DNA from: a bacterium
GTDB lineage: Bacteria; Patescibacteriota; SICC01
Assembly (NCBI GenBank): GCA_030699935.1
Contig: JAUYKS010000002.1
Coordinates: 65,018-129,017, forward strand
Reading direction: 5' to 3'
Length of the DNA stretch: 64,000 nt
Made by a program: the position numbers and the translations under genes. The first letter of the stretch is position 1; every line of letters starts with the position of its first letter. The notes beneath the pieces are model-generated. The model ran no database searches and was not told the origin of the DNA. It saw only the letters and a program-made list of their open reading frames with translations. Shown here piece after piece: positions 8,245 to 55,823 of the stretch.

Positions 8245-9279
8245 TTAGTTTAGGCCCAGCCAGAAACGGGCGGATTCGGCCCAAGAGTTTCCGGTTCGCT
8301 GCTCGGCAGGATGCTCTTCAGCCGGCTGCATCGATTCGAATACCTTGATTATCTCTTCCTTCGGCAGTTGGCCGTCGAGAATTCCCTCCGTATCGCCGGT
8401 TTTGTAAGTGTAGCCGCCGAAGTCAGGGTCGGCGTAGATTGAACCGCTGTTTGTCTTGGCGTAAAACTGACACCCTTTCTGATCGGAGTACCCGTTGGCA
8501 GTCGGACCGCCGCAGTTTTCGGGAGGGTTGTATACGGAGGGTGATTCAAGCACCAGCACTTTGTAGAAGCCGTCATCGGATTCGTACCGTAAATCAACGA
8601 CGGGTTTGCCAGTAAAAGGTTCGTCATTAACGGATCGACTGAATAGCTTGTAGCCCGCAGGCTGGTAGGTGGGTATCAGCACGTTTTCCGGAGTGGTTTC
8701 TTTGACGACTTCGGTCTGGCGGCCCTGATCGGCGAAGGCCAGTCCCGCGTATATCACGATCATTCCGGCTACGGCCAGATAGAGCGGCCAACGGGTCTGC
8801 GCCTGCGGTTGCTCCACTCCTGGTTGAGTCGTCTTTACATACTGGTTGTAAGCGCGAAGCAAAGATCCCCAATAAGCCAGTAATGTCAGGTAACCGGCCA
8901 GCGTCAGCGTCACCAGGCCGCCTTTGATATAGAAAATGGTGAGCGCGCCGCATAGTCCTTCCAAGCAGTTTGTGATGGCGGAAATACGGAGTGCCACATA
9001 CAAGCCGATTATTGCGGCCAGACCGACTAGTCCAAACAAAAACGATAGACCGTGATAGGGGCGGAGGCCGAATTGCCAGCGCCAGTCATTTAGAACGCCA
9101 GTCAAACTTGTCTTCTCGGGGTTGATTCCCTGAGCGAGCTTAGGCCTGGTCACGAAGAACCAGTACAGCAGGTACGGAGGAAACAATGCGGCCAGAAGAA
9201 TATTGAGAAGGATCGGTTGCTTAATCGAGTGGCTCGCTTCCATGCGGCCATAGTACAACACCATTGACGTAAAGCCCAA
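8245..9279 (-). CDS. Hypothetical polytopic membrane protein with Cys-containing C-terminal extracytoplasmic domain
   Basis: 4+ TM helices. GC noticeably lower (~50-52%) than neighbours. The true start may be internal (MEASHS…). Confidence 0.5.
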   Translation of the reverse strand: MGFTSMVLYYGRMEASHSIKQPILLNILLAALFPPYLLYWFFVTRPKLAQGINPEKTSLTGVLNDWRWQFGLRPYHGLSFLFGLVGLAAIIGLYVALRISAITNCLEGLCGALTIFYIKGGLVTLTLAGYLTLLAYWGSLLRAYNQYVKTTQPGVEQPQAQTRWPLYLAVAGMIVIYAGLAFADQGRQTEVVKETTPENVLIPTYQPAGYKLFSRSVNDEPFTGKPVVDLRYESDDGFYKVLVLESPSVYNPPENCGGPTANGYSDQKGCQFYAKTNSGSIYADPDFGGYTYKTGDTEGILDGQLPKEEIIKVFESMQPAEEHPAEQRTGNSWAESARFWLGLN

Positions 9280-9310
9280 AAAGTGTTATCATTAAGCAAT
9301 TTTTCCGAGG
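9264..9310 (+). promoter_or_regulatory. Conserved promoter block, copy A: TTGACG-N17-TATCAT + taagcaatttt leader
   Basis: Shares the -35/-10 architecture and downstream AATTTT block with copies at 38580, 52946 and 55766. Confidence 0.5.
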
Positions 9311-9317
9311 TTTTTCA

Positions 9318-9346
9318 TTGACAGATGAGGAACCGGCCGATATGCT
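9318..9346 (+). promoter_or_regulatory. Second tandem promoter upstream of nrnA (TTGACA-N17-TATGCT)
   Basis: Consensus -35 with 17-nt spacer. Confidence 0.4.
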
Positions 9347-9380: not shown

Positions 9381-10823
9381 ATGGAACTAAGTCCCAAACA
9401 ACAAGTCACCGAATTGGTCAGGAAGTTCGATAACGTCCTGATCGTTACGCACGCCCGTCCCGACGGCGATGCGATCGGTTCGGCCTTGGCGATGCACCTC
9501 GTGCTCGAGCAGCTCGGCAAGCACCCGACGACGATCATCCGCGACGACATCCCGGGGATGTTCCGGTTCCTGCCGGCGCTCGACAAGGTCACCAAGGACC
9601 TGACCGGCAGCCGCGACCTCGTCGTCAGCGTGAACACGGCGCGGACCAAGGTCGACAAGCTGAAGTACAACACGACCGAAGACCGGCTGAACGTGGTGAT
9701 CTCGCCGAAGGACGGCCAGTTCGCCGACAAGGACGTGGACGTCCGACAGGGCGCGTACAGCTTCGACTTAGTAATCGTCCTCGACGCGCCCGATCTCGAC
9801 CGCCTCGGTTCGCTCTACGAGGACAACCCGGACCTCTTTTACGAGGCGCCGGTGGTGAACATCGACCATCATCCGTCGAACGACTACTTCGGCGCGGTGA
9901 ACCTGGTCGACCTCACCGCGACCTCGACTTCGGAGATCCTGGTCGGCGTAATCGAAGCGCTCGGCGAATCGCTGATGACCGAGGACGTGGCGACGCTGCT
10001 CCTGACCGGACTGATCACCGACACCGGCAGCTTCCAGAACGCCAACACCACCCCGAAGTCGCTGACCGTCAGCGCCCAACTGGTGGCCCAGGGCGGCCGG
10101 CAGCAGGAGATCGTCCAGCATTGCTACAAGACCAAGCCGCTCTCGACGCTGCGGCTCTGGGGCCGGGCCCTGACGCGGCTTCAGTACGATCCGACCACCC
10201 GCGTCGTCTGGGCCAGCTTGACCAACGCGGACTTCAAGGAGACGGGCGGTACGCCGACCGAAGCGAAGGAAGTGATCGACTCGTTGATGAGCTCCGCGCC
10301 GGACGCCGAAGTGATCCTGCTGCTCCGTGAACGCGAGGACGGACGGGTCGACGGCAGCGTCCACACCACCAAGGGCGTCGATGCCACCAAGGTAGTCGGC
10401 TTCTGGAACGGCGGCGGCCATAAGGGCGCGGCCGGTTTCGACACCGACGGTCCGCTCGAGAACGCGGAACGCAACGTGGTGCTCCAGGTCAAGAAATGGC
10501 AGGCGCAGCGCCTCGGCGTACAAGGCCCGACCGAGAACACCTCGTCCGGCCGCTCGCAGACCGCGGATCTGCCGCCCCGCCCCGCCGAACAAGTCCCGAC
10601 CCGGCCGACGCGCCAGCCGCAGCGTCCTAACCGGCCGCGTCAGAACGGCATGGTCAGCGGCGGCGTAGCCGGCAAGGCGCCTTCGAAACCGCCGCAGCAA
10701 CCGGACCAGCAACCCCAGCAACCGCTCTCCGATGACGAACTGGACGCCTACTTCAAGAAATCGTCCGGTCCGAACGGCCAAGTCATCGACCAGCAGCCGA
10801 AACGGGACGATGGCCGCAGCTGA
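9381..10823 (+). CDS. nrnA: DHH/DHHA1 phosphoesterase (NrnA-like oligoribonuclease/pAp phosphatase) with P/Q-rich C-terminal tail
   Basis: …VTHARPDGDAIGS… DHH motif. …GGGHKGAAGF… DHHA1 motif. ~110-aa low-complexity tail. Confidence 0.8.
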   Translation: MELSPKQQVTELVRKFDNVLIVTHARPDGDAIGSALAMHLVLEQLGKHPTTIIRDDIPGMFRFLPALDKVTKDLTGSRDLVVSVNTARTKVDKLKYNTTEDRLNVVISPKDGQFADKDVDVRQGAYSFDLVIVLDAPDLDRLGSLYEDNPDLFYEAPVVNIDHHPSNDYFGAVNLVDLTATSTSEILVGVIEALGESLMTEDVATLLLTGLITDTGSFQNANTTPKSLTVSAQLVAQGGRQQEIVQHCYKTKPLSTLRLWGRALTRLQYDPTTRVVWASLTNADFKETGGTPTEAKEVIDSLMSSAPDAEVILLLREREDGRVDGSVHTTKGVDATKVVGFWNGGGHKGAAGFDTDGPLENAERNVVLQVKKWQAQRLGVQGPTENTSSGRSQTADLPPRPAEQVPTRPTRQPQRPNRPRQNGMVSGGVAGKAPSKPPQQPDQQPQQPLSDDELDAYFKKSSGPNGQVIDQQPKRDDGRS

Positions 10824-38579: not shown

Positions 38580-38626
38580 TTGACAAAGTGCCCAAAATTT
38601 GCTATGTTAAGGCAATTTTCAAAGAT
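38580..38626 (+). promoter_or_regulatory. Conserved promoter block, copy B: TTGACA-N17-TATGTT + aaggcaattttcaaa leader, 18 nt before ATG 38627
   Basis: Same architecture as copies A, C and D. Confidence 0.55.
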
Positions 38627-47226: not shown

Positions 47227-48423
47227 TCAATCCGCCCCAAGCACCTTGGCGACCAGGGTGAGGTCGTCGCGGACCAGACGCGGCATCAGGAACTTTTCCT
47301 CGACGATCTTCCGTCCGGCGGTGCCCATCCGCTTTGCCTTGGCCGGGTCGGCTGCCAGCTCCGCCATCCGGTCGGCGGCCTTCGGGATCGTCGAGACGAG
47401 GTAGCCGTTCCGGCCTTCCTCGATCTGCAGGGGTATGCCGCCGACGTTGCTGGCGATGACCGGCGTGCCGGCCCACAGCGCCTCGGTGACGGACAGCCCG
47501 AATCCTTCCCGCAGCGACTTCTGGACCGCCGCGACCGCCAAGGTCTGGAACGCCTTCACGGTCCGGTCGTCGGCTTCGTCGACCAGGATCAGCAGGCCGT
47601 CGTCGCCCTTGGCGGCTCCGCGCAGTTCCTTGACGATCATCGGTGCTTGCGGATCGTCGTCGGCGGTGTCGCCGACCAGGGCCAGCTGGAGTTCGGGCAC
47701 CTTCTGTTTGGCCAGCCGCCAGGCCTCGAGCACCCCCAGCGGATCCTTCCACTGGTCGAACCGCGATACCTGCACGACGAACGGCCGCGACAAATCGAGC
47801 GGGTAGGCGCGCAGAATCTCCTGCGCCTCGTCCTTGTCCATCGGACGGTTCTTCTTCGAATCGGCGTCGATCGCCGGCGGGATAATCGCCAGGTGCTCCG
47901 GCGAGAATCCCGGCAACCGGAACGACTCCAGGCTGAAGATGCCGCCAGCATAAGGCAGCAGGTACTTGGCCATCCGGTTCGCGACCCCGCCGTGCGGATC
48001 CGAGCTGTCGAGATGACAGCGCCAGATCCACTTGGTATCCGAAGCGTCGACCCGGAAGTACGGGATCGCCGCCGGCTGCGGATCGTGGACGATGATCGCG
48101 TCCCACTGGGCCGGGGCCACCTTCTTGGCCATGTCCTTGCTGACCGCCTCGTAGTATCGCCATTCGGTAGGAGAGAGGCCGGTGTGTTCGCCCTGCAGGG
48201 CGTTGTGGATCTTCTTCGTGACCTCGAAGAACCCGGCCGGCGGTTCAATCACCTGCCAGTCGGCCTTGATCCCGAGGTCCTGCAGCATCGGCACCTCGGA
48301 ACGCAGGATTTCCGCCACCCCGCCGCCGTTGGCAGTGGCGCTCAGGTGGAGGATACGCTGGCCTCGGAGCGCATCGGTCAGGCCTTTGATTTCGGTGTCC
48401 AACGATTTCACTTCGTTCATCAT
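47227..48423 (-). CDS. GT4 glycosyltransferase, TreT (trehalose glycosyltransferring synthase)-like
   Basis: N-terminal …SATANGGGVAEIL…WQVIE…FFEVTKKIHNALQG… resembles the TreT family. C-terminal GT1/GT4 fold. Confidence 0.6.
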   Translation of the reverse strand: MMNEVKSLDTEIKGLTDALRGQRILHLSATANGGGVAEILRSEVPMLQDLGIKADWQVIEPPAGFFEVTKKIHNALQGEHTGLSPTEWRYYEAVSKDMAKKVAPAQWDAIIVHDPQPAAIPYFRVDASDTKWIWRCHLDSSDPHGGVANRMAKYLLPYAGGIFSLESFRLPGFSPEHLAIIPPAIDADSKKNRPMDKDEAQEILRAYPLDLSRPFVVQVSRFDQWKDPLGVLEAWRLAKQKVPELQLALVGDTADDDPQAPMIVKELRGAAKGDDGLLILVDEADDRTVKAFQTLAVAAVQKSLREGFGLSVTEALWAGTPVIASNVGGIPLQIEEGRNGYLVSTIPKAADRMAELAADPAKAKRMGTAGRKIVEEKFLMPRLVRDDLTLVAKVLGAD

Positions 48424-48503
48424 AGAGGACTATTGGCGCTGGGCTTAGCCGAAGGTCGGCGGCATCGCTTGCTGGGCGTACGCCGTTACAGTTAACTGAA
48501 ACC

Positions 48504-49625
48504 ATGCCGAAAACAAAAAAGAGGCTTCGGGTCGCGATGTTCGCGGGGAATACCCACCCGATACCTCCGAAGGACATCATCATGGCCAATTTTTCGATTG
48601 CCTTGGCGATCGCGGATGGCATGAAGGCCCGCGGTCATGATGTAACGCTCTTCGCGGCGGAAGGAACCCGCACCAAGGCCAAGCTGGTGACCAATGGAAT
48701 GCTTCCGTTGACCGAGACTTCCTTGTCCAGTCTGATCAAGGAGCAACCGACGGGATTCACGGCCCGCGAACCTGAGCGGTCGACGGCCTTTTATGCCCAG
48801 ACGATGATCAGCGAATTGTATCGTCGGCACCTCGCACGTCCTTTTGATCTTATCCATCACCATCAAGTGATGCGTCCGATCCATTACGCCAAACTGACCA
48901 AGACTCCACACCTCTTCACCGTTCACGATCCGGTTACCCCCCTCTCGAAATGGCTCTACGGTTTTTACGCCAAGACGAAGAACGTCAATTTCGTCGCATT
49001 GAGCCGGAACCAGCGGCAATGCGCCCCGAAGTTGCCGTGGGCAACTACGATACACAACGGCGTGGATGTCAAAGAGTACCCGTTTAAGGAAACTCCAAAG
49101 GACTTTCTCATGTTTGCCGGACGGATTACCGCGGAGAAAGGTCCGCATCGTGCCATCATCGCTGCAAAACAAGCGAAAGCCCCGCTGAAGATTTTCGGCC
49201 CGTACGGAGGACAGGGTACTGATAATCAGGATTTCTGGGAGGAAGAAATCGCTCCTCGTCTGAGCGCAAAGGTGACGTTCGAAGGTTTTCGTGAGCGCCT
49301 GTCCCTCATTCGCGAATACGCCAAAGCCCGGGCGGTCCTCATGCCGATCACCTGGGAGGAACCTTTCGGCCTCGTTGCCATCGAGGCGATGGCCTGCGGG
49401 ACACCGGTGATCGCCTTCAAGCGGGGCGCCCTGCCGGAAATCGTCGTCCATGGTAAGACGGGCTTCCTCGTGAACTCAGTGGACGAGATGGCCCGTGCGA
49501 TCAAGCGGATCGACCAGATTGACCGGGCTGCCTGCCGCCGCCACGTGGAACAGCACTTTTCGATCGAACGGATGGTCGACAGGTACGAGCGGGCGTACTA
49601 TGCGTTGGCCAAAAGGCCCAAATAG
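48504..49625 (+). CDS. GT4-family glycosyltransferase
   Basis: …EEPFGLVAIEAMACGTPVIAFKRGALPEIVVHGKTGFLV… E-x7-E donor-binding motif. Confidence 0.75.
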   Translation: MPKTKKRLRVAMFAGNTHPIPPKDIIMANFSIALAIADGMKARGHDVTLFAAEGTRTKAKLVTNGMLPLTETSLSSLIKEQPTGFTAREPERSTAFYAQTMISELYRRHLARPFDLIHHHQVMRPIHYAKLTKTPHLFTVHDPVTPLSKWLYGFYAKTKNVNFVALSRNQRQCAPKLPWATTIHNGVDVKEYPFKETPKDFLMFAGRITAEKGPHRAIIAAKQAKAPLKIFGPYGGQGTDNQDFWEEEIAPRLSAKVTFEGFRERLSLIREYAKARAVLMPITWEEPFGLVAIEAMACGTPVIAFKRGALPEIVVHGKTGFLVNSVDEMARAIKRIDQIDRAACRRHVEQHFSIERMVDRYERAYYALAKRPK

Positions 49626-50620
49626 GTACGTTCGTATTCATCTACCATCCGGCGCAAGGAAAAATGCTCGATGGCGTGCTGGCGGGCCGTCCGCCGATCC
49701 AGTTCACCGATCCGGCGGACGTATTTGGTAAGTCCCGCCGGTGTCTTCGCTAAGAAGCCGGTCTTGCCATGGACTACGAGCTCCGGCATCGCCCCGCGCG
49801 GTGTAGTCAACACGGGCGTGCCGCAGGACATGGCTTCGACCGCGACCAATCCGAACGGTTCCTCCCAGCGGAGCGGTGAAAGCAGTCCGACGGCGCTTCT
49901 CAGTAGTCGGACCTTTTCGGTCAGGCTGACTTCTCCCACGTACCTGATTTGCTTGGAGAGGTATGGCCGTATCTTCGTTTCGAAGTAACCCCGGTTTTCC
50001 TTCGCAATCATTCCCGCGATGACCAGAGGCACCTTGGCTTTGCGCGCGATTTGTACGGCATCGCCCGCACCCTTCTTTTCGGAAATCCAACCGAGCCAAA
50101 GGAAATAGCCCCCGCCGCCTTTTCCGAAGGCGTGGCGATCGGTATCGACCCCGTTATAGATGGTCTTGGTAAACTTCGCGCCTCGATACAATGTCCGCTG
50201 CTGCTTCGAAATGGCGATCAGGTGCGTGTACTTGCTGGCGTCGCGGAAAAAGACCTCTCGCTCCTTGTTCCATCCGTTATGGATAGTCGACGCCATCGGT
50301 GCTTTCAGGAGAGGTGCGAAGGATAGGGCGACGTTATCGAAGTGGTTCGACCAGAGTTCTATTCCGCGATCCCGCGAGAAAATCTTGAGGAGATGGTCGG
50401 CATGCACGATCCCGCGCAAGGACTCGGAAATGTCCCTGATTTCCCGTGGCCACGTGGTGACGAGATTCCCTTTGAATTTGGAACCACTGGCTGCGAATAG
50501 CGTGACCTTATGTCCGCGCTCCAAGAGACCGTTCGCGAGTTGGTCGATAATCCTTTCGACGCCCGCATGACCGGTCGGGGGAATTTTCCTGTATAGCGGC
50601 GCGATGACTCCGACGTGCAT
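49598..50620 (-). CDS. GT4-family glycosyltransferase (paralog of 48504-49625, convergent, 3' ends overlap 28 nt)
   Basis: …EEPFGLVAVEAMSCGTPVLTTPRGAMPELVVHGKTGFL…. Confidence 0.75.
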   Translation of the reverse strand: MHVGVIAPLYRKIPPTGHAGVERIIDQLANGLLERGHKVTLFAASGSKFKGNLVTTWPREIRDISESLRGIVHADHLLKIFSRDRGIELWSNHFDNVALSFAPLLKAPMASTIHNGWNKEREVFFRDASKYTHLIAISKQQRTLYRGAKFTKTIYNGVDTDRHAFGKGGGGYFLWLGWISEKKGAGDAVQIARKAKVPLVIAGMIAKENRGYFETKIRPYLSKQIRYVGEVSLTEKVRLLRSAVGLLSPLRWEEPFGLVAVEAMSCGTPVLTTPRGAMPELVVHGKTGFLAKTPAGLTKYVRRIGELDRRTARQHAIEHFSLRRMVDEYERTYLGLLANA

Positions 50621-50787
50621 ACGACAATCTTAGCTAAAAAAAGGAACGCCGACCTGCTGAGAGCATGCTGCCGGCAATTGTACCCTCAGCACAAGTAACT
50701 GGTATGAGGGTATAAATGCCTGAGCGTGACGATTTATCTGTTGGATACCCGACGGTTGTTACTCTCCGCTGGTGGTACGATTTGCGC

Positions 50788-51381
50788 ATGACAGTCGTTA
50801 TCGCTAGCAAATGCCAAGAAGGTGTGCTGTTGGCTTCGGATACACGAGGAAGGCAGTATATCCCAGACGTTCGTGAGAAGGAATCGGTAGATGGTGTTAG
50901 TAAGATTTTCCCCATGAGCGACAAGGTGGCTGTGCTGTCTTTTGGAGCAGGCCTGCAAGACTTCGACAAAAGGCTAGAAGGCCACGCTAAATCACAAAAA
51001 GCGAACATTGCTGCTGGCTTGATTAAGGATCAACCGGACTTAGATTTGTTCAAGAACACACTTCCTCACTTCTTCAATTACACCTACCTTGACCAGCCAG
51101 ACGACATGGAAGATTCTGCTGGGTTCTTGCTGGTTAGTAAGAATGAAACATATAGTCTGCACTCTAACTCCGATTTTGCGCCAGAAAAAATAGATGCTGA
51201 CTACAAAGTGGCTGGTGTTCCAGATATTCTGTTTGAGGGGGATAAGAAACTGACGGCCAGAGAAACCGCTGATCGAGCCATTAAAGCCATAGAGTATTGC
51301 GCCAAGAAGTATAAAGACGACGTAAACAACGATGTTCAGATGTGGCTTATCACTGACTCCGGTATGTCCCGCTTTACATAG
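50788..51381 (+). CDS. Orphan HslV/proteasome-beta-like Ntn-hydrolase
   Basis: After Met: TVVIASKCQEGVLLASDTRG… (Thr1, Asp17, Lys ~33-38) and …VAVLSFGAGLQDF…, parallel to HslV TTIV…GDGQ…AGFAGG. Low-GC (~45%) islet; no HslU nearby. Confidence 0.5.
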   Translation: MTVVIASKCQEGVLLASDTRGRQYIPDVREKESVDGVSKIFPMSDKVAVLSFGAGLQDFDKRLEGHAKSQKANIAAGLIKDQPDLDLFKNTLPHFFNYTYLDQPDDMEDSAGFLLVSKNETYSLHSNSDFAPEKIDADYKVAGVPDILFEGDKKLTARETADRAIKAIEYCAKKYKDDVNNDVQMWLITDSGMSRFT

Positions 51382-51411
51382 TCAAACCACCGCCATACGA
51401 TAACTCCGTTA

Positions 51412-51912
51412 ATGCCTAAGAAGCAGCCAGCCACCGAAAAAGAGAAGACTATCGTCGGGGCGGTAATTCTCGCGGTATTCTCTGTATTCGCACTAACGGC
51501 CTGTACCGGTGGGAGCGACGACAGCGATACAAACGACACGACAAACAATCAGGCTAACGAATCTGTTAAAGAAACCCCGAAAAACGAAGAGTCTTTAGTC
51601 GATAAGGTCGAGGTAGCACTGGATAAATTGGGCGAAGGATATAAAAGTGAGCTGGCTTCAACGAACGGCGGCTATCGGGGCGATATAATTAGCGTTGAAC
51701 CAGCCGTAGGTGACGATACCGTTAAAGTTAATGTATCGACTCGCTTTAAAGACTCGGGTGATGAACCTGATGGCGGTAGAAACATAGCTCGCAGGATATT
51801 CGGCAGTATTTGTCTTGATGTTCCAGAGCTTGAAAGTCTGTATGTGGTAAGCAGTTCTGGATTGGAAAGTAAGTCAGTATATCGCAGTCAAATACCTGGC
51901 TGTAAGCAGTAG
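51412..51912 (+). CDS. Hypothetical lipoprotein (low-GC islet)
   Basis: Signal peptide + lipobox LTAC. Confidence 0.5.
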   Translation: MPKKQPATEKEKTIVGAVILAVFSVFALTACTGGSDDSDTNDTTNNQANESVKETPKNEESLVDKVEVALDKLGEGYKSELASTNGGYRGDIISVEPAVGDDTVKVNVSTRFKDSGDEPDGGRNIARRIFGSICLDVPELESLYVVSSSGLESKSVYRSQIPGCKQ

Positions 51913-51974
51913 ATCAGTAGTCGGCAGAAGCGAGTAGAATATGAGTGTGGCTGAGAAAAACCCAGTATCCCTCA

Positions 51975-52990
51975 ACGCTTTCAACCGATTGCTTAACCGC
52001 GCTTCGCAACCGGCAGCGAAACCTGCGAAACCAAAGCGTCGAACATCCCGCCCTGCAAAGTCCGGTGGGAATACCGCCAGCCGTACTCGTTAGCGTAAAG
52101 CTGTAGGTACTTCGGGCTGACGTGCCGGTACACGCCGGTTATGCCTCGTTTGAGGTGTGACCAGATATTCTCGATGTTCTGGGTGTGAACCGATCCGCTG
52201 ACGTACTGCTTCCGCTGGTGCTTGATACCGTCGTGGGTAAAGCCGACCTTGTGGAGTTTCGAGTAAACCCCATGTTCGTCATGGTAAATGGTCGCGTCCG
52301 GCGCGACGTTGAGGACAATAGGCGGGGTCAGGGCTTCGGTTCCGGTGTGGGGGACATGGACGAGCTTGGCCTTTCCGCCTCGTGAAACCATGCCGAACAC
52401 AACGGCCTTATCCTGATGTCCGCCTCGGTTACTGTGCTTCTTATCAGGGTGCCGGTTCTGGTCTGCCCCGCCGACAAACGTTTCATCCACCTCGACTTCG
52501 CCGGACAGCATTTCGCCGTCCTCGGCAGACATGAGCGTTCGTATCTGCTTGGCGATCCGCCACGCTGTCTTATAGGTCACGCCAAGCTCCCGCTCCAACT
52601 GCTTGGCCGAGATACCAGCGCGGGTCTGAACCATGAGGTACATGGCGTAAAACCACAGCCAGAGTGACGTGGTGGACTTCTCAAAGACCGTACCGGCCAA
52701 CGGGTAGACTTGGTACCCGCAGTTGCAGGCATAGCTGGTACGTCCCTTAACACGGGACAGCTCGTTTTCCCGTCCGCACTTCGGGCAGGTGAAATCACGG
52801 AAGCGGATTTGCCGTATTTCCTCTAGGCACGCAGCGTCATCAGGGAACCGCTTACGGAAGTCTGCGATGGTGAACCTGTCGTCCATAGGCACATATTAGC
52901 AGCTAACCTACTTGTAGTCAAGGTATAAGTGCCATGCTGCCAGCCTTGACTATTAGCACCTTTTGTGTTATGGTTAAGCAATTTTCAAAC
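51975..52990 (-). mobile_element. IS1595-family (ISXO2-like) insertion sequence, ~1 kb, bounds approximate
   Basis: Single transposase ORF. 11-bp terminal inverted repeats ATTGCTTAACC (51988-51998) and GGTTAAGCAAT (52972-52982). Sits in a low-GC islet. Confidence 0.7.
51993..52892 (-). CDS. IS1595-family transposase (DDE, N-terminal Zn-finger)
   Basis: …FTCPKCGRENELSRV…YACNCGYQV… zinc ribbon, HTH (…LGVTYKTAWRIAKQIR…), ISXO2-like DDE domain. Confidence 0.85.
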   Translation of the reverse strand: MPMDDRFTIADFRKRFPDDAACLEEIRQIRFRDFTCPKCGRENELSRVKGRTSYACNCGYQVYPLAGTVFEKSTTSLWLWFYAMYLMVQTRAGISAKQLERELGVTYKTAWRIAKQIRTLMSAEDGEMLSGEVEVDETFVGGADQNRHPDKKHSNRGGHQDKAVVFGMVSRGGKAKLVHVPHTGTEALTPPIVLNVAPDATIYHDEHGVYSKLHKVGFTHDGIKHQRKQYVSGSVHTQNIENIWSHLKRGITGVYRHVSPKYLQLYANEYGWRYSHRTLQGGMFDALVSQVSLPVAKRG

Positions 52991-52992
52991 CT
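52946..52992 (+). promoter_or_regulatory. Conserved promoter block, copy C: TTGACT-N17-TATGGT + taagcaattttcaaa leader; outward-facing at the IS right end, ending at the galT ATG
   Basis: Same block as copies A, B and D; contains the IS right inverted repeat. Confidence 0.55.
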
Positions 52993-54000
52993 ATGGAAAA
53001 TTATCCCTCAGAGCTGCGGCGCGGACATCTCGACCATCGGTGGGTGCTGATCGCCTCCGGACGGGCCGACCGTCCCCAGGACTACATCAATCACACGCCG
53101 TCCAAGGTGCGGCGCGATCCCTTCTCCCCGGAGAACATCCGGAAGGAGGACATCATCGACCTGATCCCGAACAACGACGGCACCGAGTACGAGACGCCGA
53201 GCACCTGGAAGGCGATGGCAGTGAGGAATCTCTACCCGTTCGTCGGGAAGGTCGCAGGCCGGAAGCCGCGCTCCACCGGCGACATCCGAGACGGCGTCGG
53301 CGCGCACGAGATCATCATCCACTCGCCGGATCCCGACCGGGACTTCGGAAGCTTCGAGTCTGAACAGGCGCAGGCGGTCCTCGAGCTCTACCTGAAGCGG
53401 TACAACCACCTCTCGCACATGCCGGAGGTCAAGCATGTGCAGATCTTCACCAACCGTGGCAAGGAAGCGGGAGCCTCGGTCGTGCACCCGCACACCCAGG
53501 TGGTTGCCTTGCCGGTCGTTCCGCCGTACATCAAGGACCTGGTCCGGATCGCCGGCAAACACTACGACAAGAGTCAGTCCAAGCTGAGCGAGGACGAGGT
53601 CGAACGGGAAATCCACGAGGCGTCCCGGGTGATTTACGAGAATTCGAAGTTCCTGGTGTACTGCCCGTTCGCGCCCTTGGCCGACTACCACATCCGGATC
53701 ATGCCTAAGGAGCGGGGTTCCTACTTCCATGAGATCACCCAGGAGCAGGTCGAGCACCTGTCGCGGGTCCTCAACCTGGTCTTCCGGCGGCTGGACCGGA
53801 TCGCCGGCATCCCGCCCTACAACGCTTACATCCGGACGGCGCCGGTCGGTGCCGACGAGAAAAGGCTGCGCGGGTTCCGCTGGCACATCGACATCCTGCC
53901 GCACCTGGCGATTCCCGGCGGCCTCGAGATTTCCACCGGACTCACCGTGGTGACGGTCTTCCCCGAGGACGCGGCGCATGCCCTAAGGCAGGATTCATGA
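52993..54000 (+). CDS. galT: Galactose-1-phosphate uridylyltransferase (HIT-like class II GalT)
   Basis: …ASGRADRP… and the HxHxQ motif (VVHPHTQVVALP). Confidence 0.7.
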   Translation: MENYPSELRRGHLDHRWVLIASGRADRPQDYINHTPSKVRRDPFSPENIRKEDIIDLIPNNDGTEYETPSTWKAMAVRNLYPFVGKVAGRKPRSTGDIRDGVGAHEIIIHSPDPDRDFGSFESEQAQAVLELYLKRYNHLSHMPEVKHVQIFTNRGKEAGASVVHPHTQVVALPVVPPYIKDLVRIAGKHYDKSQSKLSEDEVEREIHEASRVIYENSKFLVYCPFAPLADYHIRIMPKERGSYFHEITQEQVEHLSRVLNLVFRRLDRIAGIPPYNAYIRTAPVGADEKRLRGFRWHIDILPHLAIPGGLEISTGLTVVTVFPEDAAHALRQDS

Positions 54001-55765: not shown

Positions 55766-55823
55766 TTGACATTTACGCCAAATAATGTTATGGTTGTCTA
55801 ATTTTGCAACACAAATACCACGC
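55766..55823 (+). promoter_or_regulatory. Conserved promoter block, copy D: TTGACA-N17-TATGGT + tgtctaattttgcaac leader upstream of pilN
   Basis: Same architecture as copies A, B and C. Confidence 0.5.

Follow-up and report, generated by a model that had tools for sequence, protein, structure and literature searches.

Insertion sequences (ISs) of the IS1595 family have a transposase with a DDE domain and, in all groups except IS1016, a zinc finger, and they produce an 8-bp target duplication (PMC8101967); a type that carries passenger genes, the transporter IS (tIS), is known from tISCpe8 and MTnSag1 (PMC5704250). Among Mutator-like DDE elements, TnGBS, ISLre2 and ISKra4 insert in an oriented manner 15-17 bp 5' of sigma-A -35 boxes, which the authors called unusual among prokaryotic transposases and read as a means of avoiding gene disruption (PMC3942029). 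ISs with outward-facing or hybrid promoters have also been reviewed (PMC9330008). In our literature search, promoter targeting was described neither for IS1595 elements nor for Patescibacteria. The locus analysed here lies in a stretch of 64,000 nucleotides of contig JAUYKS010000002.1 (assembly GCA_030699935.1), referred to below as the window. We are highly confident that its positions 50673-52933 are one complete IS1595-family transporter IS of 2,261 bp, carrying a transposase gene and two passenger genes, and that the promoter of the neighbouring gene galT is native to the host; this confidence covers the anatomy and the native origin of the promoter jointly, and targeting at the level of integration is rated separately below. 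A sequence-only reading of the region had proposed a different arrangement, in which an element of about 1 kb was flanked by 11-bp inverted repeats and its right end was itself the promoter block (block C) that drives galT.

As in tISCpe8 and MTnSag1, a DDE_Tnp_IS1595 domain and an N-terminal zinc ribbon are found here together with inverted repeats (IRs) of about 25 bp, an 8-bp duplication and passenger genes between the IRs. The differences are in the cargo, which is a predicted proteasome-like hydrolase and a lipoprotein-like protein instead of lincosamide resistance, in the host, which is an uncultured high-G+C Patescibacteria lineage, and in the fixed-distance association of the clade with -35 hexamers. 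The resemblance to TnGBS, ISLre2 and ISKra4 consists in oriented insertion at a fixed short distance 5' of a sigma-70-type -35 box, with the promoter left intact. Unlike in those elements, however, the transposase is of IS1595 type, the distance from the tip to the -35 is 11-12 bp rather than 15-17 bp, the promoter-side end is the transposase-proximal one, and the specificity is deduced from the sequences of 43 flanks. The locus also looks like that of an outward-promoter IS in that an IS end lies immediately 5' of a gene, with a promoter within tens of bases, but both galT hexamers are located outside the duplication and are older than the insertion.

The boundaries of the element were set by the longest IR of the region and a perfect 8-bp direct repeat, as follows.

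50673-52933, minus strand: IS1595-family transporter IS, judged complete, 2,261 bp
50665-50672, no strand: left copy of the target-site duplication, ATGCTGCC, directly abutting the IRR tip
50673-50697, plus strand: distal terminal IR (IRR), GGCAATTGTACCCTCAGCACAAGTA
52909-52933, minus strand: transposase-proximal terminal IR (IRL), GGCACTTATACCTTGACTACAAGTA reading inward from 52933
52934-52941, no strand: right copy of the target-site duplication, ATGCTGCC, directly abutting the IRL tip

The two terminal IRs are imperfect repeats of 25 nt (GGCAATTGTACC... / ...GGTATAAGTGCC), 76% complementary between 50673-50697 and 52909-52933, and the two ends can be aligned over about 50 nt. Both open with GGCA, consistent with the IRs beginning GG of the IS1595 family, and the duplication is identical at both tips and of the length typical of the family; the chance of an 8/8 duplication exactly at the tips of two 25-nt IRs is about 1 in 65,000. 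The same boundaries were obtained from related copies. The closest public transposase (P0001, 88% identity) is encoded on two assembly contigs, L001 and L002, whose near-identical IS copies diverge at exactly GGCAC, both mutually and relative to the window. This divergence point reads GGCACTTAT(A/C)CCTTGAC and corresponds to window position 52933, about 40 bp before the right repeat of the sequence-only reading and 12 bp before the galT -35. At the left, the homology between the window and L001 continues about 75 bp beyond the transposase stop, through the proposed left repeat, and the L001 contig terminates in ...CTACTTGTCCTCATGGTATAAGTGCC, an inverted copy of the first end at a distance of 2,208 bp; a lipoprotein-like gene and a short open reading frame (ORF) are located between the two L001 ends. 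The real size of the window element, cargo included, is thus 2.26 kb and not about 1 kb. Its two ends are the sole IR-like sequences within the 64-kb window, which thus contains a single copy; neither lies near the three further promoter blocks A, B and D. A scan of a collection of genome contigs with the transposase revealed no close copy, just relatives of 40-57% identity. The end GGCACTTAT fits the ggnnatTAT type of end consensus of the ISNwi1-like subgroup, to which the element may belong. Because its ends and ORF are intact and its duplication is perfect, the element may well still be active. A direct repeat TATCCCTCA (51966 / 53002) was judged to be due to chance. At the distal end, a local inverted repeat of 16 nt, GGCAATTGTACCCTCA / TGAGGGTATAAATGCC (88%), was observed at window 50673-50720; through it the tip sequence returns inverted 36 nt inward, and it overlaps both the start of a 221-aa ORF and a TATAAA box.

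The transposase gene occupies the right part of the element and reads away from galT.

51993-52886, minus strand: IS1595-family transposase gene, 297 aa from the ATG at 52886, stop codon at 51993-51995
52887-52921, minus strand: predicted transposase promoter within IRL, found by consensus scan, with -35 TTGACT at 52921-52916, a 17-nt spacer, -10 TAATAT at 52898-52893 and 6 nt to the ATG

From an alternative GTG start the ORF would span 51993-52892 (299 aa); gene callers use the ATG, and the exact 297-aa ATG-start product is on record in public assemblies, while the 299-aa form is not. The assignment of this ORF to the IS1595 family, already made in the sequence-only reading, was borne out by Pfam. 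DDE_Tnp_IS1595 (PF12762) matched with E=8e-39 over profile positions 1-152 of 153, and Zn_ribbon_IS1595 (PF12760) matched at 25.4 bits, exactly on its curated cut-off. The protein is full length in comparison with its homologues, its Cys and acidic residues are conserved, and Cys34, Cys37, Cys54 and Cys56 are invariant in the alignment. No Mutator-like (p-MULT 3/4) transposase signature was found, the Pfam matches being to IS1595 domains alone. As to promoters, all calls reported here are consensus matches. The sole promoter predicted within the IS end points inward, to the transposase, and of the clade's 39 distinct IRL-proximal sequences, 20 show the same geometry, with the start codon 6 nt past the -10. 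This geometry suggests that the transposase is probably made from a leaderless mRNA off a promoter inside its own terminal repeat.

The promoter that faces galT is located on the other side of the right target duplication.

52946-52992, plus strand: promoter block C of galT, native and not part of the IS, with -35 TTGACT at 52946-52951, -10 TATGGT at 52969-52974 (TGT before it) and, as far as the galT ATG at 52993, the conserved taagcaattttcaaacct

With the element stopping at 52933, the duplication at 52934-52941 and the first base of the -35 at 52946, both galT hexamers lie beyond the duplication and the promoter block is not the right end of the IS. GalT orthologues with 81-85% identity are present on four contigs of related Patescibacteria without the IS (L009-L012), on which the genes downstream of galT are conserved (SpoIIAA-like, ruvC, yebC, pilN and pilO). 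These IS-free sites carry TTGACTATT-N-TGTTATGGTTAAGCAATTTTCAAACC immediately 5' of the galT ATG, and block C stands intact before galT in three related IS-free genomes, the stretch from the -10 to the ATG being almost invariant and the spacer variable. Since the block is outside the duplication and is present at orthologous sites without the IS, we concluded from these comparisons that the galT promoter is native, that it predates the insertion and was left intact by it, and that no part of it is IS-derived; delivery of a promoter into galT by the IS, as formerly proposed, is refuted by the unchanged block of the IS-free relatives. What held was the physical coupling of an IS1595 element to the galT promoter, with the tip 12 bp 5' of the -35. 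In the course of events that we propose, transposition brought the element into the intergenic DNA 5' of galT, with duplication of the 8-bp target ATGCTGCC; this insertion put the transposase-proximal tip 12 bp 5' of the pre-existing galT -35, with the transposase gene divergent from galT. An IS-free allele of the species would then show the junction ...GAGAGCATGCTGCCAGCCTTGACT...

Blocks A (9264), B (38580) and D (55766) had been thought to be solo ends or miniature inverted-repeat transposable elements (MITEs) left behind by the IS. No IR-like sequence (at most 8/25 mismatches) and no notable inverted 12-mer partner were found within 400 bp of any of them, and block D before pilN is, like block C, conserved in IS-free relatives. 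They are not IS remnants. Thus the conserved blocks are native, vertically inherited promoters, which should be studied as a host promoter/leader consensus, and the IS or MITE lead is removed.

The 11-bp inverted repeats on which the sequence-only reading was built are located as follows.

51988-51998, no strand: left arm of the 11-bp repeat, ATTGCTTAACC, overlapping the transposase stop codon, no IS end
52972-52982, no strand: right arm of the 11-bp repeat, GGTTAAGCAAT, within the native promoter block, no IS end

These arms do form a perfect inverted pair that brackets the transposase ORF, and among random 1.3-kb sequences matched in composition just about 2.6% have such a pair at IS-like spacing, which would favour an IS of about 1 kb bounded by the repeats, with its right end driving galT and with blocks A, B and D as its solo ends or MITEs. 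The right arm does lie within block C, the promoter-like block facing galT, just past the -10. At that frequency, and as one among 20 inverted pairs in the 1.3-kb region, the pair is, however, not a strong signal, and the ends of the IS are at 50673 and 52933. No target duplication flanks the 11-bp repeats, the sequences immediately outside 51988-52982 being TTCAACCG and TTTCAAAC, and none is found outside 51975 and 52990 either, where ATCCCTCA faces CTATGGAA. Moreover, related copies diverge at 52933 and not at 52982, the block is present at IS-free orthologous sites, and an inverted partner is lacking at each of blocks A, B and D. The TAAGCAAT that follows the transposase stop in the left arm is also kept in the related ISs of L001 and L002, which stand at unrelated sites where no block exists, and the TAAGCAAT of the right arm, as part of the host promoter/leader, is also kept before galT in IS-free genomes. 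Because the left arm is conserved in related ISs and the right arm in IS-free genomes, the two arms are of independent origin, and the 11-bp repeat is a coincidence of two independently conserved sequences; we regard an IS bounded by it as scarcely credible. Both observations that the sequence-only reading had named as its own refutation, different ends in other copies and no duplication around 51988-52982, were made. Only slightly less improbable is a simple, roughly 1.0-kb IS (about 51917-52933) beside unrelated host genes, for which the IR at 50673 and the ATGCTGCC repeat would be fortuitous or older. In its favour, the nucleotide homology between the window and L001 ends at 51917, and 51923 and 52933 both read GGCA inward. 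At 51923, however, there is no IR past the GGCA and no duplication, and the loss of homology is due to divergence of the cargo; the gene alongside still has a protein-level homologue with common C-terminal codons. The duplication at the tips of the 25-nt IRs, which is so rarely expected by chance, the foreign codon composition of the passenger genes and the size of the clade members (1.6-4.0 kb) also speak for the 2,261-bp transporter IS. An end near 51917-51923, where the L001 homology stops, had been considered and was dropped; the L001 contig end gave the distal IR, and the window has its duplication at 50673.

The position of the element relative to the galT promoter was then compared with that of its relatives. 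An exact-pattern scan of metagenome contigs with the 25-mer of the proximal end gave 44 further loci. The loci were oriented on the transposase-proximal tip and duplicates were collapsed, leaving 43 distinct flanks. Sixteen elements of the IRL pattern, the window and 15 others, have a perfect 8/8 duplication together with a recognisable distal repeat; the shortest, a non-autonomous derivative, has 666 bp and the longest 4,041 bp. A typical clade member measures 1.6-4.0 kb and bears its cargo between the IRs. L057, which was reached via its transposase, has the same structure including the 8-bp duplication, and P0049, although present on 30 contigs, is a single locus from many samples and adds one insertion site.

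Reading away from the IS, TTGAC started at offset 12 from the tip in 11 of the 43 flanks, whereas in two, those of the window and L002, it started at offset 13, and the other 29 offsets (up to 31) gave 1 match, which corresponds to a binomial P of about 3e-25 against the background of the flanks themselves. The hexamer TTGACA was matched in at least 5 of 6 positions at the same offsets in 17 of 43 flanks. Of the 12 testable flanks bearing TTGAC, 10 have TAnnnT at a spacer of 16-18 nt, usually a -10 box 17 nt on. These flanks look like real sigma-70-type promoters that face away from the IS. At +9 there is an enrichment of C, and the target reads [8-bp duplication]-N3(4)-TTGACA. The orientation is biased but not absolute, the motif being on the IRL side in 13/43 flanks versus the IRR side in 2/16 elements. 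The same geometry was observed in remoter relatives, namely L005 and L006 (Saccharibacteria metagenome-assembled genomes (MAGs), 40% identity) and L057 (53%). Identical IS interiors are found in different flanks. Since identical copies differ in their flanks and the window promoter predates the IS, the hexamer is part of the target rather than of the element. The clade-wide pattern of promoter-upstream insertion is statistically strong, and the position of the window element beside the galT promoter is probably not accidental. The sequence-only reading had also considered that the IS repeats converged on or target the native promoter; targeting fits the clade-wide insertion pattern. In the 666-bp derivative L028 (Ga0114923_10031929), which has both terminal repeats and a perfect duplication AAATTTGA and is without transposase, TTGAC was seen at offset 12 on the distal side.

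We consider it rather likely, from the distribution of the flanks, that the position bias arises at integration rather than from selection alone, because survival of random intergenic insertions would not yield single-base precision. What is recognised could be the -35 hexamer, read by the transposase, or an RNA polymerase bound to the promoter; the clade would prefer targets of the form given above, usually with the transposase-proximal end beside the promoter, and such an insertion would find a harmless spot in a compact Patescibacteria genome. With somewhat less assurance, we lean towards the broader proposal that a Patescibacteria-widespread IS1595 tIS clade evolved, independently of the Mutator-like elements, integration-level targeting of sigma-70-type promoters via the -35 hexamer, read directly or through bound polymerase, with a leaderless transposase promoter back-to-back with that of the host, as a safe-haven strategy. 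Several observations weigh against the account given so far. The targeting motif is missing from about half of the flanks, the spacing in the window and L002 is one base above the mode, and the distal IR is usually without TTGAC, which speaks against the transposase simply recognising a sequence that resembles an IR. In addition, no IS-free allele of the exact species was found, both other assemblies (L003 and L008) carrying the IS here, and the evidence for the empty site comes from relatives with 81-85% GalT identity and a differing upstream gene order, the comparison spanning promoter-proximal DNA only.

With the same boundaries, the adjacency to promoters could in principle be due to purifying selection on random insertions, without any targeting at integration. 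The short intergenic regions of Patescibacteria and the flanks without the motif are compatible with this, and so is the distal IR without TTGAC, which leaves no recognition mechanism evident; selection would not predict, however, that 11 of 13 TTGAC lie at offset 12 and 2 at 13, with 1 elsewhere, nor the orientation bias or the enrichment of C at +9, and we consider selection alone unlikely. A different matter is whether the IS, though not the source of the promoter, alters the expression of galT through polymerase competition or supercoiling coupling, given that it replaces the DNA upstream of -47. The divergent -35 hexamers (52916-52921 on the minus strand, 52946-52951 on the plus strand) lie 24 bp apart, a point of geometry only, and the same 24-nt separation is found in L002 and L005. 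Against this, the core promoter and leader are unchanged, and the upstream DNA of the IS-free relatives is G+C-rich and not UP-element-like. We regard such an influence as a tentative possibility; it would be compatible, as an added effect, with the account given above.

If the pattern does reflect target choice, promoter-upstream targeting would have arisen a second time, independently, among bacterial DDE transposons. This would also show a route by which mobile elements persist in streamlined candidate-phyla-radiation genomes, a safe-haven strategy letting cargo-carrying elements spread through very compact genomes, and the 297-aa transposase with its 25-bp ends would be a compact system for studying or exploiting promoter-directed integration.

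The two passenger genes are located between IRR and the transposase gene.

50716-51381, plus strand: passenger gene 1, predicted divergent proteasome-beta/HslV-like N-terminal nucleophile (Ntn) hydrolase with an N-terminal propeptide, 221 aa, sub-threshold Pfam Proteasome match
51412-51912, plus strand: passenger gene 2, small lipoprotein-like protein, signal ...LTAC followed by TGG, 166 aa

Passenger 1 is nearly an orphan: in 1.8 billion representatives, just 5 remote relatives were found. Four of these five match Pfam Proteasome, three of them at or above the curated threshold, and in the alignment the Thr after Met25, one Asp and one Lys are invariant and the conserved propeptide ends in WYDxxM directly before the T. 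On these features the protein looks like a proteasome-beta/HslV-type Ntn hydrolase. A word-indexed homologue search with the 221-aa sequence returned itself alone, the PDB sequence search and PADLOC gave no match, and single-sequence structure prediction gave no usable model (predicted local distance difference test, pLDDT, of 33). Passenger 2 is homologous to a 180-aa gene in the same position of L001. Relative to L008 (MAG contig JAXMKC010000076.1, 99.98% identical), the window has one additional G near 51859 (TCTGGATT vs TCTGATT), which shifts the frame of passenger 2, giving 166 aa instead of 174 aa and loss of the C-terminus VVGRSE that L008 has in common with L001; either a true mutation or a sequencing error in a homopolymer may explain this. 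The passenger genes are of foreign codon composition, their G+C content at third codon positions (GC3) being 0.44-0.50 versus about 0.85 in the host. In other members of the clade (L018, L021, L022, L035, L037 and L051; 2.3-4.0 kb), the cargo includes SocA/Panacea antitoxin-like proteins (twice), Bro-N, NUDIX, a nucleotidyl transferase, an SBD_N/NBD_C sugar-kinase-like protein, Replic_Relax and an NYN nuclease-like domain.

The surroundings of the insertion site and the other promoter blocks gave some further observations. To the left of the IS, at window 48000-50620, two glycosyltransferase genes have lower G+C and GC3 (0.70) than the remaining window; their order and orientation are unlike those in L009-L012, and a 340-aa protein is 35% identical to its positional counterpart in L009, which suggests that a variable glycosyltransferase island adjoins the insertion site. 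L003 (a Logan SRR13727534 contig) is 100% identical to window 49580-52992 and stops one base before the galT ATG and within the glycosyltransferase region; these end points may reflect strain-level variation or assembly-graph branching. The four blocks (9264-9310, 38580-38626, 52946-52992 and 55766-55812) have in common TTGACN-N17-TATNNT followed by (t)aag(g)caattttcaaa, and in blocks B and C the ATG is exactly 18 nt past the -10, leaving no space for a Shine-Dalgarno sequence. That the segment between the -10 and the ATG of block C hardly varies in IS-free relatives points to more than a promoter, perhaps an initiation signal or a leader under constraint. A second promoter-like site, TTGACA-N17-TATGCT, was observed at window 9318-9346, 54 nt 3' of block A and before a gene starting at 9381, so that tandem promoters are possible at block A.

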